The notes under the pieces: model-generated
What the model was told of the DNA's origin: nothing
Seen by the model: the letters and a program-made list of their open reading frames with translations, nothing else
Databases searched by the model: none
Program-made: the position numbers and the translations under genes
Source: Cycas panzhihuaensis
Lineage: Eukaryota > Plantae > Cycadophyta
NCBI GenBank assembly: GCA_023213395.1
Contig: CM041465.1
Span: 177,079,741-177,143,740, forward strand
DNA: 64,000 nt
Direction of reading: 5' to 3'
Shown: positions 12,901-48,682 of the stretch, one piece after another
Layout of the letters: each line of letters opens with the position of its first letter
Position numbering within the stretch: the first letter of the stretch is position 1

Positions 12901-15900
12901 AGCAATGCCCTTAAGTAGACTCTATTGTAGAACCTATTCACATCCCATCCATAAAAGCAGATAGTTGATTAAAGGCTAGCTTATGCATCAAATATTCAGA
13001 AAAATAGATCTTAGGCTATACTAAGGTATGCAAGTCAAGGCAGATGGTTTTCATAATTGACCCCAACTTGGAAGATGATTGTAAAATTGAAGAAGAGCCT
13101 ATGCAAGATGATGAGCAATCGCAAGATTTATCACCACCTAATCATCACAATGAAATTTTTCTATTTATTGTTTCCTCTGCTTCCTACCCAAAACCACTCT
13201 AGGTGAAAGGAACCCTTTAAAAAATGCCTATTTTAATATTAATCAATGGTGGTATGTCTTTAAATTTTATTGATATCTTTATATCTCATTAATTAAACTT
13301 TTACATTCTTCCCAAAATTAGATTTGCTTATTCCTTATGCCAGAATAATTAAAAACCTTTATATCCAAATTGACACTTATTAACTCACTTCAAATTTTTA
13401 TGCTCTATTAATAAGATCATACGCCATTCTTGGAGTCCAATGGCTCTAAATTCTAGGAGCATACAGTATGAAAATCCCTTAATAATCATTCTATTTTATT
13501 CAAAGACCACATTAGTCAAAAACATAAATGATATGGAATCCAATCCCCTCTTAATCAAGTCACATCTCCTAAGCAAATGTGTAAGCATTTGAATAAGTGT
13601 TAGCTATATTCTTCAAATCAACAATATCCAACCTAATAGTAACATTCATCCACATGTCCACAAACTCCTCTATAAATACCAATCTTTATTTTCTCCACTT
13701 CCTACAAGCCCCCACCTTTCAAATCATGGTTTTTACCACTCCATTCACTTTAAGAGCCTTCATAATCTCATTAGTCTTTGCCCATATAAAAATTCTTGTT
13801 TTTAAAATAATAAAATTGAGAAAATCACAAATGAGTTGATAAGCATGGGCATCATTATAACATAACCCAATCTTCTTAAGCAGATGAGGTACTAGTATAG
13901 AGAAACCATCCAGGGTTAAGTGTTGATGTTAACTATTTAAGTTTTGTGTGTAGGCCACTAAACCCTCTAATTTTATGTAAGGCCATTAGGTCCACTAATA
14001 AGATTGTGAAAGAGAAATCTTCTTTTGTCTATTTAAGAGTCAAAGATTACTTGTAATGGTACTAATTATTATTTTCTTTTCTAAGTGAAAGTACTTCAGT
14101 ACTCCTTTGGTGCTTTTTTGGTGTCCATCGTGTGAGATACTTCTATAATATTAGACTCCAAAGTTAATAGAAGTACTTTATTTGTTCTTTTAACTCATCC
14201 TCTTTTAGATTTGCAAAGATAATTTCAGGAAGATACACTCCAAGTGGTATCAAAGCAAGGTTTGACGACCCTTTAAAGGCACTCAAGAGTTAAAAAAGGG
14301 AGAATTTTTATTTTTCATTTGGTAACACTTGTAAACCTTCTCATGTACTACTTTCTTTTAGTTTCATCTTTTAGTCATTTTAATTTCTATTCAAGGGTAG
14401 ATTACACTACTTGGCAGCTACCATTTTCTACTCTCTCCCTCCCTCTCCCTGGTTAGATAATTTTACATGATAACTACCTAAATTAAATAAGTAGAGAGCC
14501 TATACTAGGGTCTATAAATATCATAAGTATCTATTATTTTGGGCTAAGTGTACTATGGATTTTCCTCCCTTATGTGAAGGAATTTAGTGAAGTTTGTTGA
14601 ACCAAGCCTTAAACAGAACTTGACTTTAGAACCAAGCCTCCACATACCCTTAGGTATATAGGAGAACCTTGATAAGCTCCCTACCCATCTTAGAATAGGT
14701 AAACTTCAAGTTGGTTGTCCTTTGAGGTGTACACATTAGCAATTGGCACTTAAAAGCTACTCTATATAAAAAATTTTACATAGTTGTAGACCCTACAGAA
14801 ACAATCTTTCCTCCATAGATAATACTCTAAGATATTGAGCTGAGCTACAATAATAGTAGAGAAGTTTATCATAGGGCCTATAGAGCTAAGCACTCTCTAT
14901 GTTAGAGTCTAATAGGTCTCCTTTGATTTAAAGTGCCACTCACATAGAGAAATTGAGTCTATTAAATTGTTGTTGTACATGCGTCACTGAAAATGCAAAC
15001 CTAAAATAATAAGGCCATAACTTTATCTGTACTTATTAGAATAAAAAATGACCTAGACTGTTGAACTTATCGCTAACAAAAATAAGTTTATGACCAAAAA
15101 ATTTATGGTTAAAATTCATACATCTTGATTTGATTAGCATCATATTTTAATTAGTGCATCATACTAATTAGTTTGCACTAGGTCAATTTTTATATTCTAT
15201 TTTAGGTATAGCAACACCTGGATTACTGGTAGGCCTTGTCGCTAAATTACACCCCTACAACTCACCTATCCTAATTTATTAAGCCTTTCACGCTTGCCCA
15301 AGTGCACTAGTTGATTTTTTTACCTAAATTCTGGGGTCAATAGGCTATAAACACCCCAAGCCCCATCCCCACCCCCTTATCCTTTATGTATCACGTCTTC
15401 TTCTTAAGACATTCCCTATTTCTTAAAAGCCCATTCTTTCTTGTTATTCCATATTTTGTAGATTTCTCTTTCTTCCTGCTAAGTCCCACTTCTTTAAAAC
15501 TCATTCTATATTTCTCATGGCATGTTCACAAGGATAAAGGATCTCTTCACTAGAAACCAAGCTTGAAGCTTTTCGATAAGAGATGAAGGTTGAGTTAGCC
15601 AACCTTCCTTCCAAGGTAGAATTCTTAGCACTGGTCAATCAATTAATTCAGTCCAATTCTAATAGCACTGGAGCATTGAATATGATGGCCAACTCTCCTC
15701 CTCCTCACCTTCTACAAGTGAATAATATAACACAGGGAGGCCATTCACATAGGTAGTAGTTGCTCCACAAATGAAGAAGACTAGCTATTATATGCCTCTA
15801 TCCATATGGATGGAAAAGCTCATCACTAGTTTACTTAGTTAAAAAAGAATACCCTTTGAATTAAACATGGTTACACTTCACAAATTATTTCGTTAAGTAA

Positions 15901-18900
15901 TCTGAGGACACTTGAAGCCAACCATACTTTACTCAATTGACACGATTCAAAAAACCATCATTTATAGAGGTCTTTACAAATGAATTTCAAGCATTATACA
16001 ATTAGTCCCCTCAAATCCAAGGCTTGGATAAACAAACCTTGATCAGCATTTATATAGTAAGCCTCTAGAATTGTATTCAGATGTGCCTCAAGACATCGTC
16101 CGTAAGATGTCACAAGGAAGCTATCAAAATGGCTCAAACAGTGAAAGAAAAATTTGTGGCTAAAAGACCCTTATACACTTGATAGGATAACCCATAGTTC
16201 TTATGATCCCATCAATCAGGCTTTGAATAACCTCAACCCTATTTTAATGAGACAACTCAACCATAAGTACATTTCCAATGTCCCAAACCATGAGTTGATG
16301 ATGTAACTCATCGTGCAATAGATCAACATGCCAAAGACTCCTCACCAAAAAGAGTCTAAATATTATAGCTAGAAGCATAACATTGAATAGAGATTAGCCT
16401 CTATGTTCAATACTTAAAAAAGTGGACTGTTGAACATGGTCACATTTGTAAAGTGAGGTGTATAGTCTTTTCTATTGACCCTACCTTATCCCCTGATGAA
16501 TATTCAAAGTTTGATTCAAAACATAAGGCTAATGATGACTTCTCAGAAGATCCCACCCTTGAGCCTCAACCTGAAGTATCCGTCTTAGTTGTAGCCTCCT
16601 CCTCTTATCCTAAACAGTTACGAGTTAAGGGCATCCTCCATAAAACTCTAATGTTAATCCTAATTCCCTAAACTTTATTGACATTTCATTTGCTCGATAG
16701 TTAAACCTTTATATTATCCCAAAAACTGGCTTTACTTGCTCCCTATTAGAGTACTAGAAGCTCCACTATATTGGTGTCATAAGAAACCTACATGTCTAGA
16801 TTGGCATCTTAGATTTCTTCACATTATCAATAGGAGAATTTAACATTATATTAGAAATTTAGTGGCTACAAACCTTAGGGACTTATAGTACCAACTCCTC
16901 CTCAATCCATCCTTTTATATTGTTCAAGGACCAAATGGAAGAAACACAAACTCTATGAGTTACAGTCCCACCAAACTGATTAGTTTTGCTAGCTTGTATA
17001 ACAAGACACCTTCAATCCAACCTTGGTTATATCATTTGTCTTAAAAACATTCAAGTTGGCCCTCAAATCTACCCATGCATCCAAGATATCATTACTAAAT
17101 ATGAGTAAGTATTTACTCCCCTTCCTACCACTACTCTACTTGACCATGGTTTCTTTCATACTATCAAGCTCCAATCCAATCACGATCCAATTAGCTTGCA
17201 CCCATATAGAAATTCATACTTTCAAAAAAATAAAATCAAGAAAATCACTACTAAACTAATGGATATAGGAATAATCCAACCAAGAAAAAGCCCATATGCA
17301 ACCCTAATTATCTTGGTTAGGAAAAGAGATGGATCATTTTTCCCTTGTGTGGACTATAGGGAACTTAATAAAAATATCATAAAAAATAAGTTCCCCACTC
17401 TGAGAATAGATGATATGTTAGATGAAATCTACTGAGCCTCAATCTTTTCTAGGCTAGATTTACAATCTAGATATTATTATATCCCAGTTGCTCTAAAGGA
17501 CTATAATAAAATGACTTTTTAGAATATATCATGGCTATTTATAGTTCTATGTGATGCCTTTCAGCCTTTGTAATGCACCTCCACCTTTCAAGCACTCATG
17601 AATAGGATATTTGGCCTCCACCTTTAAAATTTTGTTATTGTCTTCTTTAATGATATCCTTATTTATAGTTCCTACTTAGACCATCACATTCAGCATCTTG
17701 AGATTATTTTCCAAATATTACAGCAACACCAATTATATTCCAAACTTTATAAGTGCGAGTTTAGGAAAACAGAACTTTAGTTATCACTACTTGGCCAACA
17801 CCAACTAATCTCACATAATTGTAAACTTTCCTTGGCGTCATAGGATTCTATCATCTTTTTGTGTGAAACTACGCATCCCTCATAACTCCACTAATCAACT
17901 TACTCTGTAAAGACTCCTTTTAATATTCTTTAGAGGTTGAAGTTGCCTTCTCCTATCTCAAGGTCATAAAAACCTCTAGCCTAGTCCTTGCCACTCTTGA
18001 TTTTAGCCAACCATTCTAACTTGAATATGACACATCAAAATTTGGCTTGATCACAATTCTCATGTAAGACTACCCTCCAATTACATTTAAATTCTGAAAA
18101 CTGAAAAATCATAAACTTTAACTTTCTACATACCGTAAGGAAAACAAAACCATCTTACATGTTGTGGATGTGTGGTATCAATATCTCTTCGTATCAAAAG
18201 TTCTTATCCTTACAAACCACTAAAGCCTCCTTAGCCTATTAGGTTAGCCAATTTTGTTTAAAGAATAAGTTAAATAGATAAATTACCTATAGGTCTTTGA
18301 CTTTATAATCTCTTATAAAAAAGACAGGCAATGTAGCATTAGATGTCTTTTCTCACCTACACCTTGATTCTAGTACCCCCACCTGTGGTATTCATAGTAT
18401 ATCAAAGCCCCACCCCATTTGGTTTAATGAATTATACGCCAAAAATTAATCTTATCTTGATTACACTCGCTTGAGTGAAAAATCTCTCACCTAAAAATGT
18501 TGGTCACCCGACAACAACTGTTGTTACTTAGAAATCATATTTTTATACATCGATCCTCCTTAATCATCTCTTGTATTTTAACATAGTACCATTCCACTCC
18601 CATAAGGGCCACTCAAGATTTAATAAAACCTATCAATGTATTCATATAGATTTCTTTTGTCCCTACATGAAACCTACCATCTTCACATTTGTATGAGAGT
18701 GCGACATTTGTCAATAGAACAAGGTGGATACCAAATCCCTACCAAGTCTTCTCTAGCCACTGCACATTCCGTAAGGCAAATGGCAGGACACTACCATGGA
18801 TTCTATCACTAGTTTGCCTATGTTTATTAATTTTCACTCTATTTGGGTAGTCATTGATAGATTAACTAAGAATTCAAACTTCCTTACAATTCACCCCTCG

Positions 18901-21646
18901 TATACATCTTCCCATCTTGTTGACATGTGCATCCAATTTATTTTTCACCTTTATAGATTTCTCTCCACCATCACGTGTGATCGCAACCCCAAGTTCATTA
19001 ACTCCTTTTAGCAAGAACTCTTTAAAGCCATAGGAACCTTATTCAACATGAGTTTCACTTACTATCTTCAAACAAATGGTTAATCTAAGGTTTTGTATAA
19101 AACTTTAGAAATTTACCTTCATTGTTTGGTCTCCTAATACTAAGCTGAGTGGACCTCCTAGCTTTCCTTAGTAGAATATTGGTACAACCCATCTCACCAT
19201 TCAGTCATTAGTATGTCCCTATTTTTGGCCTTATATAGTTATCACTCCCCTTTATATCATACCTTAGTGACTAATTCTCAGACTACCTTAGCCCAATAAA
19301 ATTTTTAGGAGATGGACCAAATCCTCCATAGCCTTAAGCAAAACCTAGCTACTGCATGCAATCGCATGAAGCAACTTATCAACTGCCACAAGTCCAATCA
19401 ATCATTTGACATTGGAGATCTCATGTTCCTCCACCTCCAACCATACAAATAATAATCTCTTAAGTTCCATCAAGGCCATAAGTAAATCCCACATTATTAT
19501 GATCCATATAAAGCCCTCCAAAAGATTAGTAAAGTTGCCTATGCACTTGACCTTTATCTAGACACCAATATCCATAATATATTTGATGTCTCTTACCTAA
19601 AAAAAAAATCAGTAGAAAAGTTACACCTCACACCACCCTACTAATTCTTAATAATGAACAACACCTCATAGTCCTACCAAACCAAATCCTTGCCAGTTGT
19701 CAGCACCGACTCTAGAATCACACCATTTCTAAGCATCCAATACAATGGTTTTATCATGATGTAGATGAAGCAACTTAGGAATCTAAAGAGTTTGTCCAAT
19801 AACACCCTCATCTCTAATGCTTTAGAGGCTCACCATCTTAGAGGTAGGGACCTATAACATAACTCCATTTTCTTAAGTAAATGAGACACTAATATAGAGA
19901 AACCATCTAGGGTTAAGTGTTGATGTTAACTATTAAGTTTTATACATGAATTACTAAGCCCTCTAATGATATATAAGGTTATTAGGGCCACCAATGATAT
20001 GTAAGGCCATTAAGGCCACCAATAGAATTATGGAAGAGAGAACCTCTTTTGTCTATTTAAGGGTCAAAGATTGCTTATAATGGTACTGATTATTATTTCC
20101 TTTTCTAAGAGAAAGTACTTCGATGCTCCTTTGGTACTATTTTAGTATCCATTGTGTGAGTTGTTATGTAATATTGGATGCCAAAGTTAATAAAAGTGTT
20201 TTTTTTATTCTTTCAACTTATTCTCCTTTAAATTCACAAGGATAATTTTAGGAAGATACACTCTAATCATCCAACTCAGTAAAAACCCTTACACTACACC
20301 TATCAACCTAGTTAGGAGAAAAAATGGGTCTTTTTGCCTTTGTGTTAATTATCATGAACTTAATATGATCATGATCAAGAATAAATTCACTAGACCTTGA
20401 ATTGATAAATGCTTAATGAGATATATAGGGCTATGATTCTTTTGAAACTGGACTTTTAATTTAGTTACTACCAAATTCCTATCATCCTAGGAGATCACCC
20501 CAAAGTTGCTTTTTACATACAACATAAGTACTTTGAATTTCAAGTAATGTATTTCAATCTTTGCAATGTTGTAGAAATATTTCAAGCCTTGACGAAAAAG
20601 CTCTTTACACCATATCTTTGAAATTTTTACTTTTTTTTTTAAATAATATCTTTGTGTATAGCCTGAATTTACAGACTCACCTTTGACATCTAGAGACCAT
20701 TTTTTAGATCATCGATCATCATAATCTCTATGCCAAGTTATCCAAATGTAAGTTTGGAAAATTTGAGCTTTAATATTTAGGCCATATCATTTCATCAAAT
20801 GGAGTCTAACTTGACCTGAATAAAATTTCTATCATCACTACCTAACCAGAACCCAAAAATCTCACCTAGCGCAAAGCTTTCTTAGGTCCCATAAGGTTCT
20901 ATTACTAGATTGTTTGAAACCATACTTATATTGCTGCCTTGCTAATAAACCTACTTTGAAAAGATGCCTTTGTATGGTCTTCAAAGGTAGATTTAGCCTT
21001 CAATAAGTTTAAGGTTGTCATGACTTCTACCCCTCTTTTAGCTACCCCCAAATTCTCACAAACCTTCCAATTAGAGTGTGATGTCTTAGGTTCTAATTTA
21101 GGTGTTGTTATTAAATAATACCTTCACCCCATAGCATTTGAAAGTAAGAAATTCAAGGATCATGAATATCACTTATCCACATATCGCATTGTCAAAAAGT
21201 GGTGCCAATATTTTTGGGACTCCAAATTCACTATCTCAACTGACTAAAATAACCTTTGTTACCTACTCGACCAACCAACCCTCTCTGAGAAGTAGGCAAA
21301 ATGGATTGATCGCTTGCATGCCTTTGATTTTAAGATCTCATATAAGAAGGGAAAAGGAAAAGTTGTTGATGCCCTCTTCCATCTTCCAATAGACACTCCC
21401 CCTACTAAACTAGCCATCCATGAAATCTATATCCCCAAACTATTACTGTTAACATACCTAATAAGTAAGAATAATGCAGAATAATATTTTGTCAAATGGA
21501 CCTCCAAAGTCCACTCCCAAAAAGACTAGTCTTTACATAATTCCCAACTATTATATCAAAATCATATATTTGTCCACCCCAATTTATCATTTATCCCAAG
21601 AATTCTATATGAATACCATTCCACTCCCCTTAGTGGCCACGTAGGA
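9913..21646 (+). mobile_element. Host Ty3/gypsy element: LTR 9913-10363, PBS 10366-10377, gag from ~11998, protease, RT/RNase H 13800-13855 + 20271-21400, integrase start; truncated by a PLE
   Basis: TG...CA LTR plus TGGTATTAGAGC. RT reads MGII|QLSKNPY..PI.LVRRK across the nested insertion. FQLECDV and HPIAFES (RNase H); EYHSTPLSGH (integrase HH motif). Confidence 0.85.
13856..20265 (+). mobile_element. Nested full-length chromoviral Ty3/gypsy (LTRs 13856-14242 and 19853-20265; TSD ATCAT), copy 1
   Basis: TSD ATCAT at 13851-13855 and 20266-20270; PBS 14245-14256; PPT before 19853; decayed gag-PR-RT-RH-IN; chromodomain-like QILAS...IQWF...EAT*ES at ~19660-19810. Confidence 0.93.
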
Positions 21647-23140
21647 AAACATCGCATGACAGACCCTCATGATAGACCTTAAATGATGTCTAATAGGATC
21701 ACTTGATCATCATTAAGCTACCTGGTAAGAATCTAGGGATAGCAATCTTAGATATATCATGGTATAGTTTAGAGGAAATGAGATAACTCAATGATTCACA
21801 GGTGTATCTTTAGGTTGCAGAGGTCCCTTGGGACTAGATTTAGCAGAGGCTTAATCAAGTATTTTTTTGATTTCACCATATCCTCAATAATAGGAAGAAA
21901 TTTCTAATGAAGCACTCCCTAGCTCTACCTAACCCTATGCCTTCTACCTTCCTCCAAAGATTTAAAAGGTTGGTCTTGTTGGTAAACCCATTTGTGGCTA
22001 TTGCAACTATCCTCTTAAGCCCACCTCTAGATTCTTATACTACATGATTCTTCCTATTTTGCTCAAACAAAAGAACTACTTGATCTACTCCCTTACTCTC
22101 CTTAGAGATCTCTCTAATATTAAGTTGCCATTGAACATACTATTATTTACATTTGATGTTGAGTCTCTCTATCCTAGCATTTTGACCATTGAAGGCCTCA
22201 ATGCTCTACATGAGTTGCTTATTATTCATATTATAAGGAAGAAAAAGCTTAATGCTTCCATTATAAACTATTTACTAGAGTTTGTTGATATTGTTCTCTA
22301 GTCACATTATGTGAAATTCAATGGATTGTTCTTCAAATAAATTAGAAGAATTGATATGGATAGTAATTTTGTAATGGTTTATACTTGTCTGTTTCTATGC
22401 CATCTTAAGAAAATAGTTGAGGAAAATAACAATCTTCAAAACCTTTTATTCTACAAAATATTTATTGATGATGTTTTTGGGATTTGGCACAAATTGGAGT
22501 ATTAGCTTCAAGATTTCTTCAGTCAGTAATAGTCAGTGTAGCTAGAGAATATTAGGATCACTTATGTTATTTCTTCTACTTCTATCAACCAATTAGATAT
22601 CATTTTCTAGAAGGGAAAAGATTTTATGAAAATTGACCTACTCTCCATGAATTGCTACCGGAAGCCTTTAAATACCTACCAATATATACCTTTTAGTTCT
22701 TGGCATCCTAAGCATCAGAAAATAAGTTTCATTGTTAATAAACTCCACAAATTTCTTCTCAAAGAAAAAGAACACAATGGATTTGTTCACATGAGAGACT
22801 TATTCTATAATAGACTTAGAGCTCGAGGCTACCCTAAAGACTTTTTGTCGCATTATTTTAGCAAGGTTTTAATTTGTGACCACCTAAACTACTCGAGAAG
22901 TATTACTCTCAAGTAATGCGAAAGGGTAAGAGGGCCCCCTTAGTAATCAAGCCTAATTATTCTAAGTTTAGTAGAGAGCTTAACCTTAGGGAATCCCTAA
23001 ACCCTAAACTATTGGGGCTCTACCAACAAGACCCTGACTTGAGGTAGATCCCAAAAGTGCTAATCTGTTGAAGAAACCTATGGAAACTTGAAACATTCTT
23101 AATGCATAGTAGATTCCTTAAAAGTGGGGCATTATAGACA
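21647..23140 (+). mobile_element. Penelope-like element (PLE) reverse transcriptase, 5'-truncated, copy 1
   Basis: IIKL(P/A)(G/D)K(N/D)L, FYLPPKI.K, G(K/R)PI, FTFDVESLYPSI, FKQIRGT..GS, YKIFIDDVFGIW, YRKPLNTYQYIPFSSWHP and RLRARGYP match PLE RT and thumb motifs. Confidence 0.88.
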
Positions 23141-25798
23141 AAGTAGTTTAAGATGAAACAAATACTAATGATCAACCCTTGATGACTAATTTTAACCTGG
23201 ACGACACAATTCTTGACACTATGACATCGATGGCCCTAGAGATGGAACAAGAAGAGATGGATGACTCAAAAAATGCTTGTTAACAAGCTCTGTAGTATTG
23301 TTCACAACAACCTCTTGATCACTTTTGATATGCTTAGAAGATAGCAATAGTCTTATGCCTCTTGAGGCACTAACAATACTAATGAGTTCTAGCCCATCTT
23401 TTTAAAGTGGGTATTTTTTGGCTTACTTAATAATTTTACAATTTGTAATAGTAGCATTATGATGGGAGGCTTAGAACCCACATTTCACTCCCTTATCTCT
23501 TATTATTCTTTATTGTATTTTAATCACAACAAGAAACTTAAACCTTGCACAGATAACTCATTTTCTTAATTCTTGCATAGATTGACTTTGGCCACCACAT
23601 GTCACACCCTTTTATGGTTGTCATTACTACCCTTATTTCTTGTACTTATTGCTAGGATTCTATTGACTCCTAGCTATTGGCAAGATTCCTTTACCTTTTC
23701 TTAATTATTATGTAAGGTTCTCGACTTCCTCAAAGTTGCCTATGTAAGTTTCATTCTGAATAAAAACAAAATCATATCCACTCATGAATTCATGAAGAGC
23801 AAAATCTATTTGAAATATCCCTTTTGTATAGTTGTGAAGCAATTAATAAAAATTTCTAGTTTTGTAATGTTATCATAGCATTTTACCTTTTACTTTAAAG
23901 TTTTTGCTTGGTTCATCTACACTATAATACTTTTTACCTAAGTTAATCTTCCAAAACTCTATTTCACTACATGCTTGTATTCTTTACTACTTTTAACTTA
24001 CATATGGTTAAAAATATAAATCAACCCAATTATTTTTGGATAGGAGATGTTGAGGTGTAAGGAGGAATTATTGAAGGGGAAATCTTGCCATAGATGATTA
24101 ATAATCCTCTAGATCTAAGCAATGATTATCATGAACATTAAATAAGGCTTGGTATATATGTCCAAGTTTTTTTGGAGATAGTTTAATGACTAGGGAAACA
24201 TACTTAGAACAATTTTTTTTTATGTGTAAAAAATTCATCACGTAGGCGGTGTTGGGGTTAATGTTCATCACCCTACTTCCATATTTCATACATGTGAGTG
24301 CACACATATTAAGGTAAGTTAGGTAAGGTTAATTTGATTTGAGTTAAGCTGTTGAGTTATGTAATATTTTATTGTTGTTTGAATTCTAGGGGTTGAGGAG
24401 TTTCCCTCCTCCCCTAAAATATATATTTAGAGGGGTGTCCAACCCTAGTGTCTTTAAACACTGCCTATATTAGAAATTTACTATGTACTCACTCAAAGAT
24501 GGATTGAATACAAAGGCTTATATGTTTATGCTATAATGGAATAATTTTTTATACATGATCTACTCTGTCTCCATGAGGAGTTTCCCTCTTCTCCCAAACT
24601 ATATATTTGGAGGGGTGTCCAACCCTGGTGTCTTTAGACACTACCTATTTTGGAAATTTGCTATGTACTCACTCAAAGATGGATTGAATACAAAGGTTTA
24701 TGTGTTTATATTACAATGGAATGATTTTTGATACATGCTCTGCTATGTCTCCATCATTTTACATTCCTTCATTTGGTATTAGAGTATAGATTCTATGATC
24801 ATTCGCTCAGATTTTGGCTTGTTAAAGTTTTTTTTGAGAAGAAAGAAGATTTATTAGCATCTGAAGTAGATCTACTCACGGCAAGCCAAATATTAGTTCT
24901 ATTCATCTTCTACAAAGATTGATGGCAATTTCTTATATTATTTTTCATTAAAAATATGATTATTTCTTATTTATATTTGTAAAATAACCCATATCTTCAT
25001 ATATCTATGCAGGATCATAGCTATAATCAGTAGATATTCAAGATTTCATCACTTTATGAAGTTTTTATTAATAAGTTATACATATTTTGTTAAATATTTG
25101 ACTATTTTGGTATATCTGGTCCATTTATTCAATATTATTTTTCAAATCTATGCAATAGTTATTACATATTCAACCTAACAAATTTCTTAGAGAAGTTATA
25201 CTGCAAATGGTTAGTTGATAACTATTTATGTGATCTAGCTCTTCATACACTTGGTGAAAGTGTTGCATATGACTATTTGCTGGAATCCTGGCAAGCTGAT
25301 CTGTCTATTGGAGAAATCAGTTCAAAGTTTCGCCTTGTGTGGAAGAAGTTCTCATCCTCTGAAGTCAATCTTCTACACACCTACTACTGCTGCATTACCA
25401 AGTTCTTCGTATATTTACGTTTAGATATAAATTTATATATATTTCTTTGATATATCCTCTCCAATATATTTGAAAGATTTGTTATAGTTTTACATTGATA
25501 TATTGGTATATAGTATTGATTTGGTCGTATATACACCTATATTATTGTGTTTAATCTCTATGTGTGGCTTCGTTTCTTCCATAGTACACCTATTGTGTGT
25601 GAAGAAACCCTGATTTATATTTGGACATCCTGTTTCAAGGTAGCTTGGAGACCATTTTGAGTTTTGGCCTGTGAAATCCATTTGTGAAAAATAGTAAAAT
25701 CTATTACATAAATAGTTCTCAAAACCATTTTGTTAAACAACCCTATTTGAATCATACCATTATTTGTTCATCTGCATACTTGGCTCTTTTTTATTCGC

Positions 25799-25960
25799 TT
25801 AACTCTTCACTTCTGTTGTTGTACACATGAATGACTGCATGCAGATCTTGTAATGAACTGTCATTGCCTTTTTATTAAAGTCAAGTTGACTCCCTTTGGT
25901 GCTCTTGGCCTTCTCTTCTCTCCCAGGCCACCTTGGATTTCTACCCATTCCCACCATTAC
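25799..25960 (-). pseudogene. Captured fragment of an At2g23090-like small zinc-binding protein (4F5/zf-met2 type)
   Basis: GGNG*KSKVA.ER, then (frameshift) EKAKSTKGSQLDFNKKAMTVHYKICMQSFMCTTTEVK. This matches the family pattern GGGNGQKS.MAR...KGSQLE.NKKAMSIQCK.CMQTF.CTTSEVK. Confidence 0.8.
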
Positions 25961-26300
25961 TGGATCAACATATGAATCAGGTAGAACAAAGATGACTCTG
26001 GGTAACCCCACAAGTTTGTTTAAGGCCTCCTCATCAATTTGGCAACAAAATCCATAGTAACGCTTATACAATACATTGTATATTATCTTCTTGGCTGCCT
26101 CCTCAGTTCCCAAAACCTTGGTGAGTTTTTTAATATAACAGTCGATTATTTCCTCCTTTGTAATTTTACCCTCATTGGGAGGGTCCATCACGATGAGCTA
26201 ATACTCATAGTCATAGCTTGGGAAGAGTGCCATGGTCTTCACAAGGGGGCTATCAATTTAGTTTGGCAAGTCATTCATCAATGGAGAATACCCTGAGTCG
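25961..26300 (-). pseudogene. MORF: Captured intronless MORF/RIP/DAG (organellar RNA editing factor) fragment
   Basis: DSGYSPL...ALFPSYDYEY*LIVMDPP...IIDCYIKKLTKVLGTEEAAKKIIYNV...YYGFCCQIDEEALNKLVGLPRVIFVLPDSYVDP corresponds to the MORF box. Confidence 0.92.
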
Positions 26301-26317
26301 CATGAGAATACCCTCAG

Positions 26318-26435
26318 ATACCATTGGTAGTTGCTCTATAGATAGAAGTGCATCCATCATTGCTTCTAGCGTCCTTGTTTGCACCATCCTGTAACATAAT
26401 TCTCACACATTCAATATATCCCTTGACGATAGTAG
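26318..26435 (-). pseudogene. Captured ankyrin-repeat fragment (possibly VAPYRIN-like)
   Basis: KGYIECVRIMLQDGANKDARSNDGCTSIYRATTNG fits the ankyrin consensus. Confidence 0.7.
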
Positions 26436-28312
26436 TGGCCATTGGTTTCTCCACCTTGGTAGATGATACAGCCACGAAACCAACATCTTCAGCTTTTCTG
26501 CACTCGGTTCCCTATCTCGTAGCTAGAGCACTCAAAATTTAATACCCGCACTCCTCTCCCTTCCATTCTACAGGGTGTGCTTTTATGAATTACAGTTGTG
26601 GTCAGAAGGAAAGCTGTGCTTCAGGCACGTCTTTTGTCGACCCATTTTTTCTTTTCATTTTTCTTTATATATATATATATATATTAGTTGATGGATTAAG
26701 TGTGCCCTTATTTGATTTAAAAAACTTGATCTTTGATCGTATCATCACCTCTGTTTTGTTGTCTGCGTGATCACGGTAGTGGGGGAGTATCCTGTTTTGT
26801 TTATTTTTTATTTTATTTCTTTTAATAAAGTTTTGACTTAATAAAATTAAATTACATATTATTTAAAATTTGAGTTAGTTGTAAGCTTAAGCTCCCTTTG
26901 GTCTTAGCCCCCAATTCTATACTATTCCATATGACCTTTAGCTCATTGCTAAAGGGGCTTTCTAGCTTTATAACTATTTTCTTTTATTATATATTTTTTT
27001 TCTTTAAAATATAAGGTACTTGGTTAATTTCTTCAATATCTCTTTCCTAATATATCGGTTTCTGACGAAACCTATCATGCTAAGTCTAGAATTTTCTGTG
27101 GTATAATTTAGATTGGTTATTTGCCATATTTGGAGCTGATTTGACCTATTTCTAACAAGTTTAAGTCAATCTTTCTTAAAAAGGGCCTTCTTTTAGATTA
27201 TTAACATAAAAGTACTTGCTGTTATTTTCATTATAACTTTTTTGTTTCATATTAGAATTCATATATATTAGTTGCATTAGGTGCCTAACTTGTTCCTCTT
27301 CAAACTGACACTATTATTTATAAGTTTTAAAGTGTTGAGGTACATAATAACTTCTAATTAGTCATTATTACATATTTTTATATATTATTTCTCAAGTTTT
27401 TAAACTTAAAAGTATATTAAGCAACTCTCTAAACTATATATGATCATTTTACATTATTCTATAAGTTTTTTACTAACATTTCATAATATTTTAAGCCCTA
27501 AGCTCCTGTTAAGCCTAAAAAATGGGACTGTATCTTTTATACATTAAAATCTTAACTTGTAGGAATATGTTTTCAAAACGGTCAGTTCCGTTGACTAGAT
27601 ATTTTATTGATCTTCAAATTGGTGTAATTTCACCTTATTTTGACGTTGTCTAATATAGTTTTAGAGCTACTCAACTTGAGCATTCAAGATATCCCAATAG
27701 GCTTGTCCTCTAAACCTTTTGTAAGGAGTTCTTCATTTTTTTTCTTATTGATCACTTATAATACATGGTTGAAGCTTTTATTTAATTTTTTATATAGCTT
27801 CTTTTAAGCTAATTTATAGTAGAAATTGATCATATACATCTCAAATAAGTGACAAGCTAAGTGGTCCCATAACTCAAAATGGGTACAATTCTTTTTTTTT
27901 TAATGTTTCTTCTTCATTTTTTATCTTTCTAAAGTAAAAATGTGCATATATATTTTAGATTTCCTGCATTACATATATTTATTAAGACAAAAGTATTTCT
28001 TGCATTAAAAAATAAAGCCATTCTTTGCTCAAGTTAAGTGCTTATTTATTTGAAAAATCAAAAAGCTTAGAATTTTTTCTATTATTTTTTATCAAACAAT
28101 TTATTTCAGATCTGCATGTTTAAAAATCTTAGTTATTTTTCAAATTTGCTCATATAATCATTATATTTTGAAGAGTCTATTTGAAATTATATATTATAAG
28201 TTTGTTGATTGATTATGTTCTTTGATTCCTTCTAAAGGCATATAGTTTGTTGAGAAGTATAAAAAGTTCACTTGTAAACCATATTTTTTTATGTACTAAA
28301 GTTTTCTATAAA

Positions 28313-28924
28313 ATGGCAATCAATCTAAATAAAATACAATTCTCTATATTTGATGGTCATGATTTTTAAAAATAGCGTAAAATAATACAAACCTACTTTA
28401 TCACAAATAGTCTTTAGAGTTACTTATAAGATGAATATGATCTTAATATTAAAGAAGACATTAAAAAATGCAATGAAGCCTTAGCTATACTATTTTGTAT
28501 TATAAATGATAATGTTTTTTCTAAAGTTTGTGAAATGGCAACTTCCAAATCAATATGGGACACCTTGGATTCTATTTATGGGGAAGAAACCCTCAATATA
28601 AATGAATTTAACTTTGATATTGTTGAGCATGTGAGACAGATGCCAAAGCATATTGGTTGTGATGGAAAGACCAAGGAGAAAAATTCAAGTCAAATGTATG
28701 ATCACCTTGTTACATGTGAAGTTGATCCTCTATTTGAAGGGGAGAAACCTTATGATATGATAGTTACTCACAACATAAAGATTTCAGAAGACAAAGTCAA
28801 AGTTCTAAGAGATAAAATTAGAGTTGCAGCCATTCATCTTTATTCAAATCAAGCTACATTTACTTGGAGATTTTTTGAACCACTCACTGGTAAAGAGACA
28901 CACATTGCTAAAAGGATGAGGTGA
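28313..28924 (+). pseudogene. Truncated Copia gag of element A
   Basis: MAINLNKIQFSIFDGHDF..., AL.ILF.I.ND.VFSKV, ATSKSIWDTLDSIYG (DUF4219/gag N-terminus); no pol follows. Confidence 0.75.
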
Positions 28925-31097
28925 GTTGATAATGATCAAGCTAAAAGATAGAGACTTAAAGTTTTTTTCAAGTTTAAGTTTCACAAGTTTAAAGAAAAGA
29001 CAAAGTTGTCTGTGATGACCATTAAGGGGAAGAATGTTGGGGTTAATATTCATCACCTCACTCCCACCTTTCACACATATGAGTGCACACATGTTAAGGT
29101 AGGTCAGGTAAGGTTAAATTGATTTGAGTTAAGTTGTTGAGTTATGTAATATTTTATTATTATTTAAATTCTAAGGGTTGAGGAGTTTCCCTCCTCCCTC
29201 AAACTATATATTTGGAGGGGTATCCAACCCTGGTGTCTTTAGACACCACCTATATTGAAAATTTACTATGTACTCACTCAAAGATGGATTGAATACAAAG
29301 GCTTGCATGTTTATGCTACAATTGAATGATTTTTGATATATGCTCTGCTCTGTCTTCATCATTTTACATTCCTTTAGGTGGATGTTGTCATTAGATTATT
29401 TGTTCATTCTTTAAAAGGTCATATGATTGAATGATTACAAGATATATATAACAGTTCCATTACCAATTGTCGAATCTTAATGATGATTTTATCAAGCCTA
29501 AGTATTACAATCTAAAATATAATGCATCTTTAATAAAGAAACTATCCACTATTAGGAGGAGTTGGGGGGAACTATTTCCTCCTCTAGTGAGTAATTTAAA
29601 AGAATATTAAGACCCATAAAAGGTGAAGTGATAAGATATAACTAGAATGGTTTTTTAAATAAATGGATTTTTAAAATATAATGATGCTAATATATATGTT
29701 CCTAGAAATAATCATGCAAGAAAAAAAGTTAGTGTTGAATATCAAATTGATAATGAATAAATTTGACAGAAATGCTTCTCAGCCAATGATGCCATGATAT
29801 AAGGAGACCTAGATAGTCTCTCTAAACATTAATTCCCATATTCAATTAGTTATGAATAGACCAAGTAATGAAGTGTAACATTGGAGGAGACAAGCCCAAG
29901 GAAATGAGCCTCAAACTATGCCTACATTAAGGAGGCCCATAGTAGAGATGATTGATATTAAGTGAGAGAATAAGCTTGATACTATGGTTATAGATAATTA
30001 AGATATTCCATGTGACATTTGGATGATAATAAAGAAATATTAGCATCAAATGATGGAATCTCAAAAATCATAACTTCTACCCACTAAGTTAGTGGCCTTG
30101 CCTAAATCTCCAATTGATTAAGGAGGACTAAACAAACTTAAATCAAAGGTTAGGGCTATCTCCAAAGACCTAGAGCAGGTCCTACCTACTTCAAGAAAAG
30201 AAAAGCATGAGGTAAATTGAAATGGATGAGAACCAATTTGGTAAACATATTCTAATAAAGCAAAATTAGAAGGCACAAGTGTAAGTATTGCCTTCCTATC
30301 TCATGACATGATCCCTTCTTCCATTAGTGTGATTTATCATGCCCTTGAAGAATAAGAATCAAGTAGTGTTGTGAAAAGAGCTTCTACTCCAAATGATATA
30401 GCTTATTAATAGATGTACCAAGATGATGAGTTCAACCTACCTCTCATGTAAGAATATGAGGATTTGGTTGATGTGGTAGCTATTGGTGAATATGATTATA
30501 TGGACAAAGAGGCAAACATTTAGAGGCTAGCTAAGACCAAAGCCCAATGTGGTTAGAAGCTTAAAACCCATGATGAGTTGTCTACCATGTAATCACTCTT
30601 TAATTATGACGATGTAGAAAGTGATGAGGTTGTTCAACAATAATATTCAGAAAGAATAACTCAAGAGCTTAATCAAGAATATGAAGCTTTATCAATTGGA
30701 CCAAAGTGGGATGTACAAGGCTTTATAGGAGTTGATTTGTTTGTGCTCTAAGGAGCCTACAAATTTGAATAATCTAACATCTATTTATAAGATATGAAGC
30801 TCCATTTCATAACTAACTTCTACCCCACATCTTCTAATGAGAAGAAAGAGCAATTTCTAAGGTTGAAGTTTGGACTTAAACTTCTAATTGAATAATTCTT
30901 ATATAAAAATGGATATTGCCCTTATTTGTTAATATACGGAAAAGGAATTCTTCTATATAATCATATAATCTTGAGACATGCAATTGGTACTCTCTCAAAA
31001 TCATATAGAGGATGATAGATCCTACCTTTAAACTATGGATGCTTGATACAAAGATATTTTCCCTCTTTATAAATGAGCAATATTATAATCCTTTAAA

Positions 31098-31639
31098 TGT
31101 TAAGGGTAATGTTTTATCTAAACATTATTGTACTACTCAAATGTTTCTTTATGATGATTATGTGTCATTACCTCTTTTTTCTACCTATGATAAGTGACAC
31201 ATATGCATTTAGCCCTTTCCAAGGTTCATGTAATTCATATTATATTTATAGAGGGATTTCCTTCATTAATGAAATGAGAATTCATTGAGAGTTTCATATG
31301 GTATGAGAGCAAGGTTCCCTAGTTAAGACAAGTTCAGTAGAGATCCAAAGAGAAGAGTTTGAAATTAAGTTTTTTTAAGGTTTCTAAGAGAATTTAAAGG
31401 AGTTTCTTGAGAAAATATAAAAGGTCTTTTTAGTATTTAGGTTGCAAAGAAAAGCAAGCATTAATTACTTAAAGTACATATACAATATAGACTATACAAA
31501 CTTATTTTTTGAAGTGCTCAAAATTTATTAAAATTTCACTAGCAAGGATGTTTTGAAGAGGTTATCATCTCTCTAAAGACATGACTTAAAAATCGCATGA
31601 TTTAAGGATGTTTTGACCTACTTTTAGTGGGCATGGGTT
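31098..31639 (+). repeat. Duplicated 5' LTR (31098-31298), PBS and leader of the large Copia, truncated at the duplication junction
   Basis: Homologous to 44801-45343 and preceded by the same TTAAA. Confidence 0.85.
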
Positions 31640-32259
31640 GATCAATGGTGGTATGTCTTTAAATTTTATTGACATCTTCATAGCTCATTAATTAATCTTT
31701 CACATTCTTCCCAAAATTAGATTTGCTGGTTCCTTGTGCCAAAACAATTAAAAACCTTCATATCCAAATTGACACTTATTTACTCACTTCAAATTTGTAT
31801 GCTCTATTAATGGGAAGATCATACACCATTCTTAGAGTCCAATGGATTTAAACTCTAAGAGTATACAGTATGAATAACTCCCTTAACAATCATTTTATTT
31901 TATTCAAAGACCACATTAGTCAAAAACACAAACTATATGGCATCCAATCCCCTCTTAATCAAGTCATATCTCCTAAGAAAATGCGTAAGCATTTGAACAA
32001 GTGTCATTTATATTCTTCAAATCAACAATATCCAACCTGATGGTAACATTTGCTGACATGTCCAAAACCTTCTCCACAAATACCAATCTTTATTTTCTCC
32101 ACTTCTTGCAAGCCCACACCTTTCAAATCATGGTTTCTACCACTCCATTCACCTCAAGACCCCTCATAATCTCATTAGTATTTTCCCATATAAAAATTCA
32201 TATTTTTAAAATAATAAAATTGAGAAATTCACAAATGAGTTGATAAGCATAGGCATCAT

Positions 32260-35200
32260 TATAACATAACCCCATCTTCTTAAGCAGATGAAGCACTAGT
32301 ATGGAGAAACCGTCAAGGATTAAGTGTTGATGTAAATAATTAAGTTTTGTGTGTAGACCATTAAACCCTCTAATGATATGTAAGGCCATTAGAACCACCA
32401 ATAAGATTATGAAAGAGAAACCTTCTTTAGTTTATTTAAGGGTCAAAGATTACCTGTAATGGTACTAATTATTATTTTCTTTTATAAGTAAAAGTACTTT
32501 GTTACTCCTTTAGTGCTCGTTTAGTGTCTATTGTATGAGTTATTTCTATAATATTAGACTCTAAAGTTAATAGAAGTGCTTTATTTATTCTTTCAACTTA
32601 TCCTCCTTTAGATTCGCAAAGATAATTTTAGGAAGATACACTCCAAGTGGTATCTAATCAAGGTTTGATGACCCTCTAGAGGCACTTAAGAGTTTAAAAA
32701 GGGAGAAATTTTTTTTTTCCATTTGGTGACACTTGTAACCCTTCTCTTATACCACTTTCTTTCAATTTTATCTTTTAGTTATTTTAATTTCTATTTAAGG
32801 GTAGATTACATTCCTTGGTAGCTACCCCTTTCTTGTCCCTCCCTCCCTCTCCCTGGGTAGATAACTCTGCATGATAGCTACCTAACTTAAATAAGTAGAG
32901 AGCCTATACCAAGCATCTATAAATATCACAAGGATCTATCATTATAGACTAAGTGTATTATGGATTTTCCTCCATTACATGAAGGACTTTAGTGAAGTCT
33001 ATTGAACTAAGCCTCAAACAGAACTTGACTATGGAATCGTGCCTCCATGTACCCTTGGGTATATAAAAGAACCCTAATAAGTTCCCTACCCATCCTAGAA
33101 TAGGTAAAGTTTTAGTTAGGTGTCCTTTTTTATGCACACATTAGTAATTGACGCCTAAAAGCTACTCTATATGAACCTTTTTGCATAGTTATAGACCTTA
33201 CAAAGATAGTCTTTCCTTTGTAGATAATACTCTAAGATATTAGGCCTAGCTATAATAATGGTAGAGAAGTTTATCATAGGGCCTATAGAGCTAAACACTC
33301 TCAATGTTAAAGTCAGGTAGGTCTCCTATAATTTAAAGTGAGTTTGGTAGGTCTCATCCAATTTAAAGTGCCATCCATGCAGAGAAATTGAGTCTATTAA
33401 ATTATTGTACTAAATCTATCACTGAAAATGCAAACCTAAAAATATAAGGCCATAACTTTATCAATACTTATTAGAATAAAAAATGACCTAAATTGTTAAA
33501 CTTGCCACTAACAAAAAAAAAGTCTACGACCAAAAAAAATCTGGTTAAAATTTATACATCTTGATTTGATTAGCATCCTATTTTGATCAGTGTATCATAC
33601 TAATCAATTTGCACTAGGTCAATTTTTATAGTCTATTTTTGGTTATAGCAACATGTAGATCATTGGTAGGCCCTGTCACTAAATTTCACTCCTACAACTC
33701 ACCTATCCCATTTTAACAAGCCTTTCATATTTGTCTAAATGTAGTAAGTGATTTTGTTCCCTAAATTTTTGGGTCAATAGGATATAAATACCCCAAGACC
33801 CATCCCCACCCCTTTATCCTTTATGTATTTTGTCTTCTTCTTAAGGCATTCCCTATTTCTTAAAATCCCATTCTTTCTTGTTTTTCCACATTTCAGAGAT
33901 TTTCCATTCTTTCTGCTAAGTCCTACTTCTTTAAAGCTCGTTTTATATTTCTCATGGCATGTTCATAAGGAGAAAGGATCTCTTCACTAGAAACCAAGAT
34001 TAAAATTTTCTGATAAGAGATGAAGGTTGAGTTAGCTAACCTTCCTTCCTAGGTAGAATTCTTAGCACTGGTCACTCAATTGATGTAGGTCAATTATAAT
34101 AGCATTGGAACATTGAATATGATGGCCAATTCTCCTCCTCCTCCTCCTTACCTTCTACAAGGAAATAATACACCACTGAGAGGTCATACATATAGGCAGT
34201 AGTTTCTCCACCACAAAATCAATATCCTGACTTTTGATCTTTAGTTGAATAAAGAGTGCACTTGTAGTTGGATCAATAAATTGTAATCTTATTTCACTCT
34301 CAACCCCATGAATGAAGAAGAACAGCTATTATATGCCTCCATCCACACGAATGGAAAAGCCCAACACTAGTTTAATTAGTAGAAAAATGAATACCTTTTG
34401 AATTAAACATGGTCACACTTCATAAATTATTTCTTTGAGCAATATGAGGAGACTTGAAGCCAACCATACTTTACTTAGTTGAAACGACTCAAATAAACAT
34501 CATCTGTAGAGGTCTTCATAGATGAATTCCAAGCATTATACAATTAGTCCCCTCAAAGCCAAGGCTTAGATAAACAAACCTTAATCAGAATTTATATAAT
34601 AAGCCTCTAGAACTATATTCAGATATGCCTCAAAACATCGTCCGTAAGCTCTCTCAAGGAAGATATAAAAATGGCTCAAGCAGTGAAGGCAAAATTTGTG
34701 GCTAAAAGACCCTTATACACTCAATAGGATAACCCATGGTTCTCATGATCCTATCGATCAAACTTCCAATGGCCTTGACCCTAGTTTGACGATATAACTC
34801 AACCATAAGTAGATTTCCAATGTCCCTAACCATGAGTTTATGATGTAGTTCATCATGTAATAGATTGGTGCACCAAGACTCCTTACCAAAAAAAGTCTAA
34901 ATATTACAACTAGAAGTATAACATTGGATAGAGGTTATACTCTATGTTCAGTGCTTAAAAATATGGACTCTTCAATATGGTTGCATTTATAAAGTGAGGT
35001 CTATGGTCTTTTCTATTAATACCACCTTACCCCCTGATGAACATTCAAAGTTCAATTCAAAACATAGGGCTGATGATGACTTCTTGGAAGATCCCAACCT
35101 TGAGTCTCAACCTAAAGTATCCCTCTCAATTATAGCCTCCTCCTTTTGTCTTAAACACTTATGAGTCAAAGGCATCCTCTGCAAAACTCTAATGTTAATT

Positions 35201-38200
35201 CTTATTGATAGTAGTATGTGTCCTTAAACTTTATTGACATTTCAGTGGCCCAATTGTTAAACCTTTACATTGTCCCAAAAACTAGATTTACTTGCTCCCT
35301 ATTAAAGTACTAGAAGCTCAACTATATCAGTGTCATTAAAAACCTACATGTCTAGATTGGCACCTCATATTTCTTCATATTATCAATAGGAGAATCTAAC
35401 ATTATATTAGAAATTTAGTGGCTATAGACCTTAGGGAGTTATAATACCAACTCCTCCTTAATCAATCCTTTTATATTGTTCAAGGGCCAAATGGAAATAA
35501 CACCTAAACTCTATGGGTTATAGTCTCCACCAAACTAATTAGTTTTGTTAGGTCGTATAAAAAGACACCTTCAATCCAACCTTGGTTATATCATTTGCCT
35601 TAATAGCATTTAAGTTGACCCTCAAATCCACCCACGTATCTAAGATATTATTACTAAATATGAGTAAGTATTTGCTCTCCTTCCTACTACTACTCTACTT
35701 GACTTTGGTTTCTTTCATACTATCAAGCTCCAATCCAATCACGATCCAATTAGCTTGCACCCATATAGAAATTCATACTTTCAAAAAAATAAAATCAAGA
35801 AAATCACTACTAAACAAATGGATATGGGAATAATCCAACTAAGAAAAAGCCCATATGTAACCCCAATTATCTTGGTTAGGAAAAAAGATGGCTCATTTTG
35901 CCTTTGTGTGGACTATAAGGAACTTAATAAAAATACCATAAAAAATAAGTTCCCCACTCTTAGGATAGATGATATATTAAATGAAATATATTAAGCCTCG
36001 ATCTTTTCTAGGCTAGATTTACAATCTAGACATTATTAAATCCCAGTTGCTCTAAAGGACTATAATAAAATAACTTTCAGAATATATCATAGCTATTTAG
36101 ATCTCTATATGATGCCTTTTGGCCTTTGTAATGTACATCCACCTTTTAAGCACTCATGAATAGGATATTTGGCCTCCACCTTTAAAAATTTGTTATCATT
36201 TTCTTTGATGATATTCTTATCTATAGTTCTTACTTAGACCATCACATTTTGCATCTCGAGATCATTTTCTAAATATTACAGCAACACTAATTATATTCCA
36301 AACTTTATAGGTGTGAGTTTAGGAAAATAAAACTTTAGTCATCACTACTTGGCCAACACCAACTAATCTCATACAATTCTGAACTTTCCTTGGCCTCACG
36401 GGATTCTATCATCTTTTTGTGTGAAACTACATATCCCTCATAACTCCACTAATCAACTTACTCTGTAAAGACTCCTTCTAATATTCTTTAGAGGTTGAAG
36501 TTGCCTTCTCCTATCTCAAGGTTATAATAATATCTAGCCTAGTCCTTGCCACTCCTGATTTTAGCCAACCGTTCTAGCTTGAATACGATACATAAAAATT
36601 TGGCTTGAGCACAATTCTTATGCAAGACTACCATCCCATTGCATTTGAAATTTGAAAACTAAAAAAAAATAAACTTCAACTTTCTACATACTAGAAGGAA
36701 ATTAGAACCATATTACATGTTATGGATATGTGGTATCGATATCTCTTGGCATCAAAATTTCTTATCCTTACAAACCAGTAAAGCCTCCATAGCCTATTAG
36801 GTCATCCAATTTTGTTTGAAGAATAAGTTAAATAGATAAATTATCTATAGGTCTTTGACTTTATAATCTCTTATAAAATAGATAGACAATGTAGTATCAG
36901 ATGTCCTTTCTCACATGCACCTTGATTCTAGTACCTCCAACTATGGTATTTATACTATATTAAAGCCCCACCCCATTTGGCTTAATGATATATATGTCGA
37001 AAATCAATCTTAGGCTGATTACGCTTGTTTGAGTGAAAAAGCTCTCACCCAAAAAGGTTGGTCATCCCACAATAACCATTTGTTACTTAGAAATCGTATT
37101 TTTGTACATCCATCCTCCTCATTCATCTCTCGTATTTTAACATAGTACCATTCCACTCCCATAAGGGCCACTCAGGATTCAATAAAACCTATCAATGTAT
37201 TTATATAGATTTCTTTTGGCCCTATATAAAACCTACCATCTTTATATTTGTATCAGAGTGTGACACTTGTTACTAGAATAAGGTGGATACCAAAGCTCCA
37301 CCAAGTCTTCTCTAGCCATTGCACATTTTGTAAGGCAAATGACAAGACACTATAATGGATTTTATCATTGGTTTGCCTATGTTTGCTAATTTTGACTCTA
37401 TTTCGGTAATCATTGATAGATTAACTACATATTTAGACTTCCTTCTAGTTCACCCCTTGTATACATCTTCCTGTATTGTTGACATGTACATCTAATTTAT
37501 TTTTCATCTTTATAGATTTCTCTCCACCATCACATGTGATCGCAATCCCAAGTTCATTAAGTCTTTTTAGCAAGAACTCTTTAGATCCATAGGAACCTCA
37601 TTCAACATGAGTTTTACTTACTATCTTTAAACAAATGGTTAGTCTAAGATTTTGAATAAAACTTTGGAAATTTAACTCTATTGTTTGGTCTCATAACACT
37701 AAACTAAGTGGATCTCCTAGCTTTCCCTAGTAGAATATTAGCACAACCCATCTCACTACTTAGTCATCGGTATGTCCCTATTTTTGGCCTTATATGGTTA
37801 TCACTCCCCTTTATATCATACCTTGGTGACTAATTCTCAAACTACCTTATCTCAATAAAATTTTTAGGAGATGGACCAAATCCTCCATAACCTTAGGCAA
37901 AACCTAGCTACAACACTCAATCACATGAAGCATTTTGTCAACTTCCACTGGTCCAATCAATCATTTGACATTGGAGATCTCATGTTCCTCTACCTCCAAT
38001 TATACAAATAATAATCTCTCAAGTCCCATCAAGGCCATAAGTAAATCCCACATTATTATGGTCTATATAAAGTCCTCCAAAATATTAGGGAAGTTGTCTA
38101 CACCCTTGACCTTTACCTAGACACCAATATCTATAATATACTTGATGTCTCTTACCTAAAAAGAACTTAGGAAGAAAAGTTATACCTCACACCACCCTAC

Positions 38201-38827: not shown

Positions 38828-38832
38828 ATCAT

Positions 38833-46760: not shown

Positions 46761-46846
46761 ACACTTCCCTTTGGTACCTCCCCACGATAGTTGAAAAAGA
46801 TAGTATTATCTCTGCTTTGGGATAGGATGAAGAACTATGAGATCAT
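46758..46846 (-). pseudogene. AP4M: Captured N-terminus of AP-4 complex mu subunit
   Basis: MIS*FFILSQSRDNTIFFNYRGEVPKGSVE versus the family pattern MISQFF(V/I)LSQRGDNIVFRDYRGEVPKGS.E. Confidence 0.8.

Positions 46847-48084: not shown

Positions 48085-48682
<598 letters not shown>

Follow-up and report, generated by a model that had tools for sequence, protein, structure and literature searches.

Probable dead host-gene cargo in a Copia-type element

The minus strand of a 64,000-nucleotide stretch of Cycas panzhihuaensis DNA (contig CM041465.1; hereafter the window, numbered from its first letter) carries, from 26445 to 25796, a weakly matched ankyrin repeat, a MORF2-like fragment and an At2g23090-like fragment arranged head to tail. 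These pieces lie inside what appears from its sequence to be an old Copia-type long terminal repeat (LTR) retrotransposon, here called element A, with decayed host pieces in antisense orientation. We consider it probable that the pieces are dead cargo: the 5′ leader of a Copia element received fragments of three unrelated host genes in antisense orientation, likely copied from spliced messenger RNAs (mRNAs) by reverse-transcriptase template switching, and these later spread with the element and decayed. A first-pass annotation of this DNA had proposed that at least three unrelated genes are joined on the minus strand, and indeed MORF, At2g23090-like and (weakly) ankyrin sequences are each matched by Pfam or PDB entries.

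Element A spans 24250 to 29376 (5.1 kb), is non-autonomous and has LTRs of about 340 bp. The hallmarks of an LTR retrotransposon are all present, namely an LTR pair, a primer-binding site (PBS), a polypurine tract (PPT) and a 5-bp target-site duplication (TSD). Its features are as follows, where element B is a second Copia element of the window and K2P is the Kimura two-parameter distance.

24245–24249 (GGCGG) and 29377–29381 (GGTGG), plus strand: TSD copies, 5 bp with one transition mismatch
24250–24771, plus strand: 5′ LTR with TG...CA ends, inside which 180 bp are duplicated in tandem (24394–24753)
24774–24784, plus strand: PBS, which sets plus as the sense strand of the element
25209–25557, plus strand: leader frame left of the cargo slot, common to element B (45872–46307); 82% and 90% alike by blastn, K2P 0.16
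26802–28125, plus strand: leader frame right of the slot, common to element B (48805–50336); 76–78% alike by blastn, K2P 0.19
28313–28924, plus strand: degenerate Copia gag remnant (Retrotran_gag_2, E 8.8e-6, 25.7 bits against a cut-off of 27)
29021–29034, plus strand: PPT
29035–29376, plus strand: 3′ LTR, ending in TA instead of CA, a transition
43034–43038: empty site, a single GGTGG in the second copy of a duplicated unit

The PBS is presumably of the tRNA-iMet type. No pol was found in element A with Pfam. The PBS, gag and PPT all read on plus and the cargo on minus, so that the cargo is in antisense orientation, a point that the first-pass annotation had not made. It occupies the leader, after the PBS and before gag. 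A 13.7-kb unit of the window is duplicated in tandem (13239–31638 and 31638–45343), and element A is found in the first copy only. The divergence between its 5′ and 3′ LTRs (K2P 0.117–0.128) is close to that between the duplicated units (0.124–0.130, about 0.125), which places the insertion of the element at or soon after the tandem duplication.

Identity and limits of the captured pieces

The cargo, listed here in its own 5′ to 3′ direction, comprises the following parts.

26666–26684, no strand assigned: (TA)n tract of 19 bp that borders the antisense cargo on its 5′ side
26446–26640, minus strand: segment 5′ of ankyrin, relatively GC-rich, with copies in related genomes at 84–94% and no Pfam match
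26320–26445, minus strand: ankyrin repeat fragment, with PDB, Atlas and Pfam matches
26284–26314, minus strand: ankyrin/MORF junction, where 11 bp of the MORF start are directly repeated (26314–26304 and 26294–26284)
25957–26300, minus strand: MORF2-like fragment without introns 1 (26106/26105) and 2 (26008/26007), with stops at 26260 and 26200
25916–25956, minus strand: linker between the MORF and At2g23090-like pieces; its 14 codons in the frame of the open reading frame (ORF) are unlike 1wvk
25796–25915, minus strand: At2g23090-like (zf-met2) fragment, with a terminal stop at 25801–25799
25557–25795, minus strand: segment beyond the At2g23090-like piece, present in related genomes, with no Pfam match and a weak 1wvk extension to about 25780

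The MORF piece is the most readily recognized. It matches the Pfam family MORF_dom (E 1.4e-29) over positions 2 to 84 of the 93-position profile, and the closest solved structure is MORF2 (5ydg, E 2e-31). A profile built from nine intact MORFs scored 163.9 bits on the window, whereas none of 200 base-shuffled versions of the cargo exceeded 5.1 bits. Among 16 matching relatives, Ginkgo Gb_32072 and a Picea sitchensis protein rank highest at 71%, and the named angiosperm proteins stand at 55–63%. In a tree of 23 rows, from which P0007, P0010, P0014, P0016 and most fetched loci were left out, the fragment falls within a MORF2-like clade beside the Ginkgo and Picea proteins, on a long branch that makes its exact placement unsure. 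These affinities by themselves make a gymnosperm host likely. The fragment has 112 codons and two stops and lacks a targeting peptide, a complete box and an intact frame, the N- and C-terminal parts of its relatives being missing.

The At2g23090-like piece matches PDB entry 1wvk (E 4.5e-10 over 25915–25796), and its zf-met2 match (E 9.3e-5) is under the Pfam cut-off. A weak search among proteins of at least 78 amino acids returned no candidate. By eye, the linker at 25916–25956 may be the At2g23090-like N-terminus in a shifted frame, a resemblance that neither PDB nor Pfam matched. The segment at 25557–25795 is possibly the tail or 3′ untranslated region of the At2g23090-like mRNA. Ankyrin is represented by a single repeat (Ank_4, E 0.001, under the Pfam cut-off) whose best single PDB stretch has an E of 0.0036, with ankyrin proteins as all of the top matches. 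Atlas likewise returned ankyrin only, at a low recognition value, and a search for the donor gave no candidate, the Atlas matches being generic. The piece may resemble VAPYRIN-like proteins. The frame 26644–26420, the one frame searched there, had 0 matches among 1.84 billion representatives.

These limits refine the earlier ones. The ankyrin identity holds, and the similarity runs from 26445 to 26320 rather than from 26435 to 26318. Likewise, the At2g23090-like assignment for 25960–25799 is right in kind but not in its start, since the 1wvk match begins at 25915. The flanks to which that annotation gave no identity, here delimited as 26640–26446 and 25795–25557, indeed have no Pfam match.

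The MORF piece lacks two introns

The first-pass annotation placed introns of angiosperm MORF genes at KVLG-TEE and NKLV-GLP, and took their absence from the cargo to imply an RNA intermediate. Plant MORF loci were drawn from a metagenome-contig scan, which gave 211 pattern matches, of which 109 were confirmed and the best 80 kept. Exon 2 could be located in 77 of the 80; these hold 43 distinct exon-2 sequences, and the loci are not independent. The exon (98 nucleotides) maps exactly onto 26105–26008 of the cargo. Similarity breaks at both of its flanks in 40 loci, at the second only in 13 and at neither in 24, such that the first intron site is broken in 40 of 77 loci and the second in 53 of 77. 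Twelve of the 13 second-site-only loci, all MORF2-like (L011–L021 and L028), are clearly without intron 1 and have kept intron 2. The 24 unbroken loci are short contigs. Because four of their exon-2 sequences recur in intron-bearing contigs, these intron-free contigs are read as transcripts.

Evidence closer to the host lineage came from four DNA runs (X1–X4, from four organisms) matched to the cargo at 80% likeness; the listing covered 32 of the 921 pieces and 24 of the 279 loose ends. In X4, record 28 matches 26227–26106 and then departs into sequence whose coding strand opens with a GT donor. Thus, both expected intron sites break in plant loci, the first with a GT donor in a related genome, and the absence of both introns from the cargo supports the proposed RNA intermediate. 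More precisely, the intron loss shows that RNA was involved at some stage, which need not have been the capture itself. The accessible part of PMC13386178 holds nothing on MORF introns.

Copies of the cassette in related genomes

The same four runs contain the junctions of the cargo. Record 12 of X2 spans the MORF/At2g23090-like junction with 17 differences in 436 positions, and record 29 of X4 spans the ankyrin/MORF junction with 24 differences in 152. Parts of the cassette are present in more than one copy, because copies of the ankyrin side at 84% and 94% overlap in X4. In several X1 and X2 contigs the At2g23090-like piece is preceded, at 25915–25916, by some other sequence, and other family members therefore have other junctions at this point.

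Intronless MORF sequence that departs from the cargo at 25957 is found in X1 (record 3), X2 (record 14) and X3 (record 20), so that longer processed MORF copies, extending further 3′ than the cargo, exist in related genomes. They could represent sister elements or else a free-standing retrocopy. At this same position a loose end of X3 goes on as MORF, and one X4 contig goes on as MORF upstream of 26296. Because MORF continues as MORF past both junctions elsewhere, the pieces do not derive from one contiguous donor locus, an origin that would have refuted the first-pass proposal. Summed contig depth drops from the leader frame toward 26640, which hints that pieces near 25557 may be common to more copies, a depth of this kind being unable to rank the parts.

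The MORF piece is decayed, and its open frame is probably a leftover

The MORF piece is decayed. Fifteen of 66 invariant MORF columns are changed in the cargo, versus 0 to 7 for each of the nine intact MORFs (leave-one-out). At sites conserved between the conifer-like transcript L001 and other transcripts, 21 of 75 G or C positions are changed versus 1 of 84 A or T positions, in a panel that includes one row (L007) misaligned by an indel. Most of these conserved-site changes are C>T or G>A (16 of 22), and 18 of 22 are non-synonymous. The observed/expected CpG ratio is 0.23 in the cargo and 0.22 in the window, and 0.98 in L001; the excess of C>T and G>A would follow from methylation-driven deamination. 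In the 23-row tree the terminal branch of the cargo is 0.42 versus a median of 0.061. The dN/dS value against L001 was not used, as dS is saturated (about 2).

A chimeric ORF at 25799–26191 had been described as currently open. The frame is open, but not from 26191, which is a GTG; it extends from stop to stop over 26197–25799, and its first ATG, at 26188, is downstream of in-frame stops at 26260 and 26200. The 129 codons from 26188 to 25799 have no targeting peptide and have lost the beginning of the MORF box. The linker is unlike 1wvk, and the frame is best read as a leftover and by-product of decay that is not evidence for a new gene. None of the data sets listed for the sequence was RNA, which does not bear on its expression.

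A second Copia element shares the leader

The leader of element A recurs in element B, which carries a host fragment of its own.

45509–55819, plus strand: element B, Copia, with LTRs at 45509–45852 and 55474–55819 and TSD TGCCA/TGGCA
46481–46834, minus strand: transportin-1-like fragment, the cargo of element B (PDB transportin-1, E 4e-17), in the same slot as the cargo of element A

Pfam remnants of gag, protease, integrase and RVT_2 follow one another in Copia order in element B, in broken frames. Its cargo region also contains a 40-bp tandem repeat (47055–47240) and about 1.1 kb without recognized content, and at the cargo edge there is a (TA)n-type microsatellite of about 600 bp (48068–48670) that matches the 19-bp tract of element A. 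The LTRs of the two elements do not align (local score 27), and their gags are 39% alike over 54 amino acids. Because the leaders are shared and the LTRs and gag unrelated, the leader module appears either to have crossed between Copia families or to be a cassette of its own.

Marks of other transposition routes were also sought. No inverted pair that would point to a Pack-type element or Helitron in the leader was found at the module edges among the 25 listed of 63 pairs in element A; the corresponding listing for element B was filled by its TA tract. The edges of the shared module have no TSD, and old termini may have decayed. As for a processed pseudogene of the long interspersed nuclear element (LINE) type, there is no poly(A) at the 3′ edge of the cargo, and the ankyrin and MORF pieces are internal. 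In the leader common to both elements there is, in addition, a relatively GC-rich open frame of 118 codons (about 25094–25450, plus strand, and 45872–46143), which is possibly an older captured piece. The best Atlas match for this frame (0.85) was weak and was rejected as an identity.

How the pieces may have been captured

Under template switching, the template would have been an already-spliced mRNA or its complementary DNA, because introns in antisense cargo could not be removed by splicing of the genomic RNA of the element. The simplest route would be a switch onto a packaged mRNA during plus-strand synthesis, which in the standard replication cycle crosses the leader first. Such a switch would yield both the antisense orientation and the position just behind the PBS, and the pieces would have been gained in more than one round. 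Every piece of the cargo is partial, no poly(A) is present, and one junction has an 11-bp duplication. In the available sections of PMC5131818, the signature of template switching onto packaged mRNA is a set of incomplete pieces from several parents, free of introns and of poly(A), enclosed by two LTRs.

Several points weigh against this route. Transduced sequences are usually in sense, according to the accessible text of PMC7264820, whereas the cargo of both element A and element B runs opposite to the element RNA. The longer intronless MORF copies (X1 record 3, X2 record 14 and X3 record 20) fit a pre-existing processed copy equally well. In addition, the standard model puts switching in first-strand synthesis. 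Natural loss of MORF intron 1 appears to occur, as judged from the MORF2-like loci that lack it; the intron-bearing loci, including all with intron 2, look angiosperm by sequence, and the host-lineage evidence for intron 1 is one contig (X4 record 28). Intron loss is established for the MORF piece only.

Earlier processed copies are the main rival. Here the copies would have arisen elsewhere and then been patched in as DNA by break repair at (TA)n, or a separate cassette would have entered two Copia families, and we regard this two-step origin as rather unlikely overall. It gains from the longer intronless MORF copies in three runs and from the fact that patching has no strand rule. Both cargoes also have (TA)n at their start, a short duplication marks one junction, and elements A and B combine a common leader with unlike LTRs and gag. 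Against it, there is no poly(A), and the shared-module edges have neither terminal inverted repeats nor a target duplication. The four identified pieces of elements A and B all have the same orientation, which is unexpected from random patching, although the number is small and comes from two elements with a shared leader. Moreover, as far as the available part of PMC13570524 describes it, LTR families commonly exchange modules.

Orientation and intron loss would be explained jointly if intron-containing genomic DNA had been captured and its introns then removed by splicing of an antisense transcript that began in the leader, the spliced form being copied back into the element, and the accessible text of PMC7264820 discusses antisense transcription of plant LTR elements. 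However, no copy of the leader frame with a MORF intron is present among the contigs listed (32 of 921 pieces), and we judge this route improbable. Less probable by far is that the frame 26188–25799 is a young functional chimeric gene of the kind that the maize element Bs1 became. In its favor, an ATG opens a run of 129 codons, and a contig of another organism repeats the MORF/At2g23090-like junction at 96%. Yet two stops lie directly upstream, the targeting peptide and MORF-box start are lost, the linker in the ORF frame is unlike 1wvk, and the changes at 15 of 66 invariant residues and the 18 of 22 conserved-site changes that are non-synonymous are those of a decayed sequence. Template switching onto spliced mRNAs remains the explanation that we favor.

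A broader proposal, which we offer only tentatively and think more doubtful than not, is that the roughly 3-kb Copia leader module is a refillable antisense slot. It would be exchanged between unrelated families and filled with pieces of spliced host mRNA beside (TA)n through plus-strand switching, always in antisense. Its transcripts would then run antisense to genes for RNA editing and nuclear import, and a layered record of the mRNAs packaged in retrotransposon particles would be preserved in the family. The shared slot is seen here in two elements (A and B). If the cargo proves strictly antisense and intronless family-wide, a standard first-strand switch and splicing of the element RNA would both be excluded.

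Other features of the window

The window is AT-rich plant DNA that is dense in decayed retroelements. A decayed Gypsy LTR element at 13856–20266 (copy at 32260–38828) retains reverse transcriptase (RT), RNase H, integrase zinc finger and SH3 sequences and has LTRs that are 77% alike. As a control, six-frame Pfam searches of Gypsy 14245–19860 and of 10366–13240 gave no host-gene match, a weak result in that Pfam also missed the transportin piece of element B. Broken frames at 21966–22916 (copy from 40485) resemble what we take to be a Penelope-type reverse transcriptase, with no Pfam match. A younger non-autonomous LTR element lies at 58174–61197, with LTRs 96% alike, a PBS at 58396 and a gag-like frame at 59761–60144. 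Decayed LINE-like frames at 2087–5758 look endonuclease-like and RT-like by eye.

Relation to known systems

Multi-gene capture by LTR elements is already published and abundant in gymnosperms, and in this respect element A is of an ordinary kind. In the parts of Bao et al. 2026 (PMC13477047) available, gymnosperms hold about 400,000 gene fragments captured by transposable elements (TEs) per genome, and 13.68% of carrier TEs have at least two fragments; Copia examples and non-canonical retrocopies without poly(A) are included. The words 'antisense' and 'chimeric' are absent from its main text, and no fixed leader slot was found in that portion. A shared Copia leader slot with antisense intronless cargo was not found described in the literature searched, which covered few subscription papers.

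What element A adds is a clean, intron-verified case of gene capture by an RNA route in a gymnosperm-type genome. Captured pieces like these are liable to be annotated in error as additional MORF genes. Should the slot prove antisense throughout the family, it would inform the uptake of mRNA by plant LTR elements and would bear on antisense or small RNA directed against donors such as MORF2.

Among related systems, the maize Sireviruses (Muyle et al., 10.1101/777037) are likewise Copia elements with host exon fragments. The accessible portion of that work reports no orientation bias, so that antisense cargo occurs, at least two fragments in 15% of elements, and small interfering RNA cross-talk with donor genes. 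In contrast, they are young maize elements, and neither a shared leader slot nor intron loss was found in that portion. TR-GAG/LARD-type elements, as described in the available part of PMC13570524, resemble element A in that the latter has only LTRs, PBS, PPT and a gag remnant, and regional sharing between families recalls the common leader of A and B; module exchange between LTR families is described there in sugar beet. Unlike these elements, element A has a broken gag and carries host cargo.

Close parallels also come from LTR-mediated retroposition, for which the accessible sections of Tan et al. 2016 (PMC5131818) describe incomplete fragments of several parents that lack introns and poly(A), lie between two LTRs and undergo further rounds of copying. 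In those cases the retrocopy takes the place of part of the internal ORFs, and its transcription is mostly in the sense direction, whereas the cargo of element A is antisense. Similarly, maize Bs1 (Elrouby and Bureau), as far as the available text of PMC5131818 and PMC13317346 describes it, holds partial exonic pieces of three unlinked host genes in an LTR element, with several copies that share the same switch points. The pieces of Bs1 form a transcribed and translated chimeric gene, whereas element A has decayed pieces that are placed in its leader and run opposite to gag.

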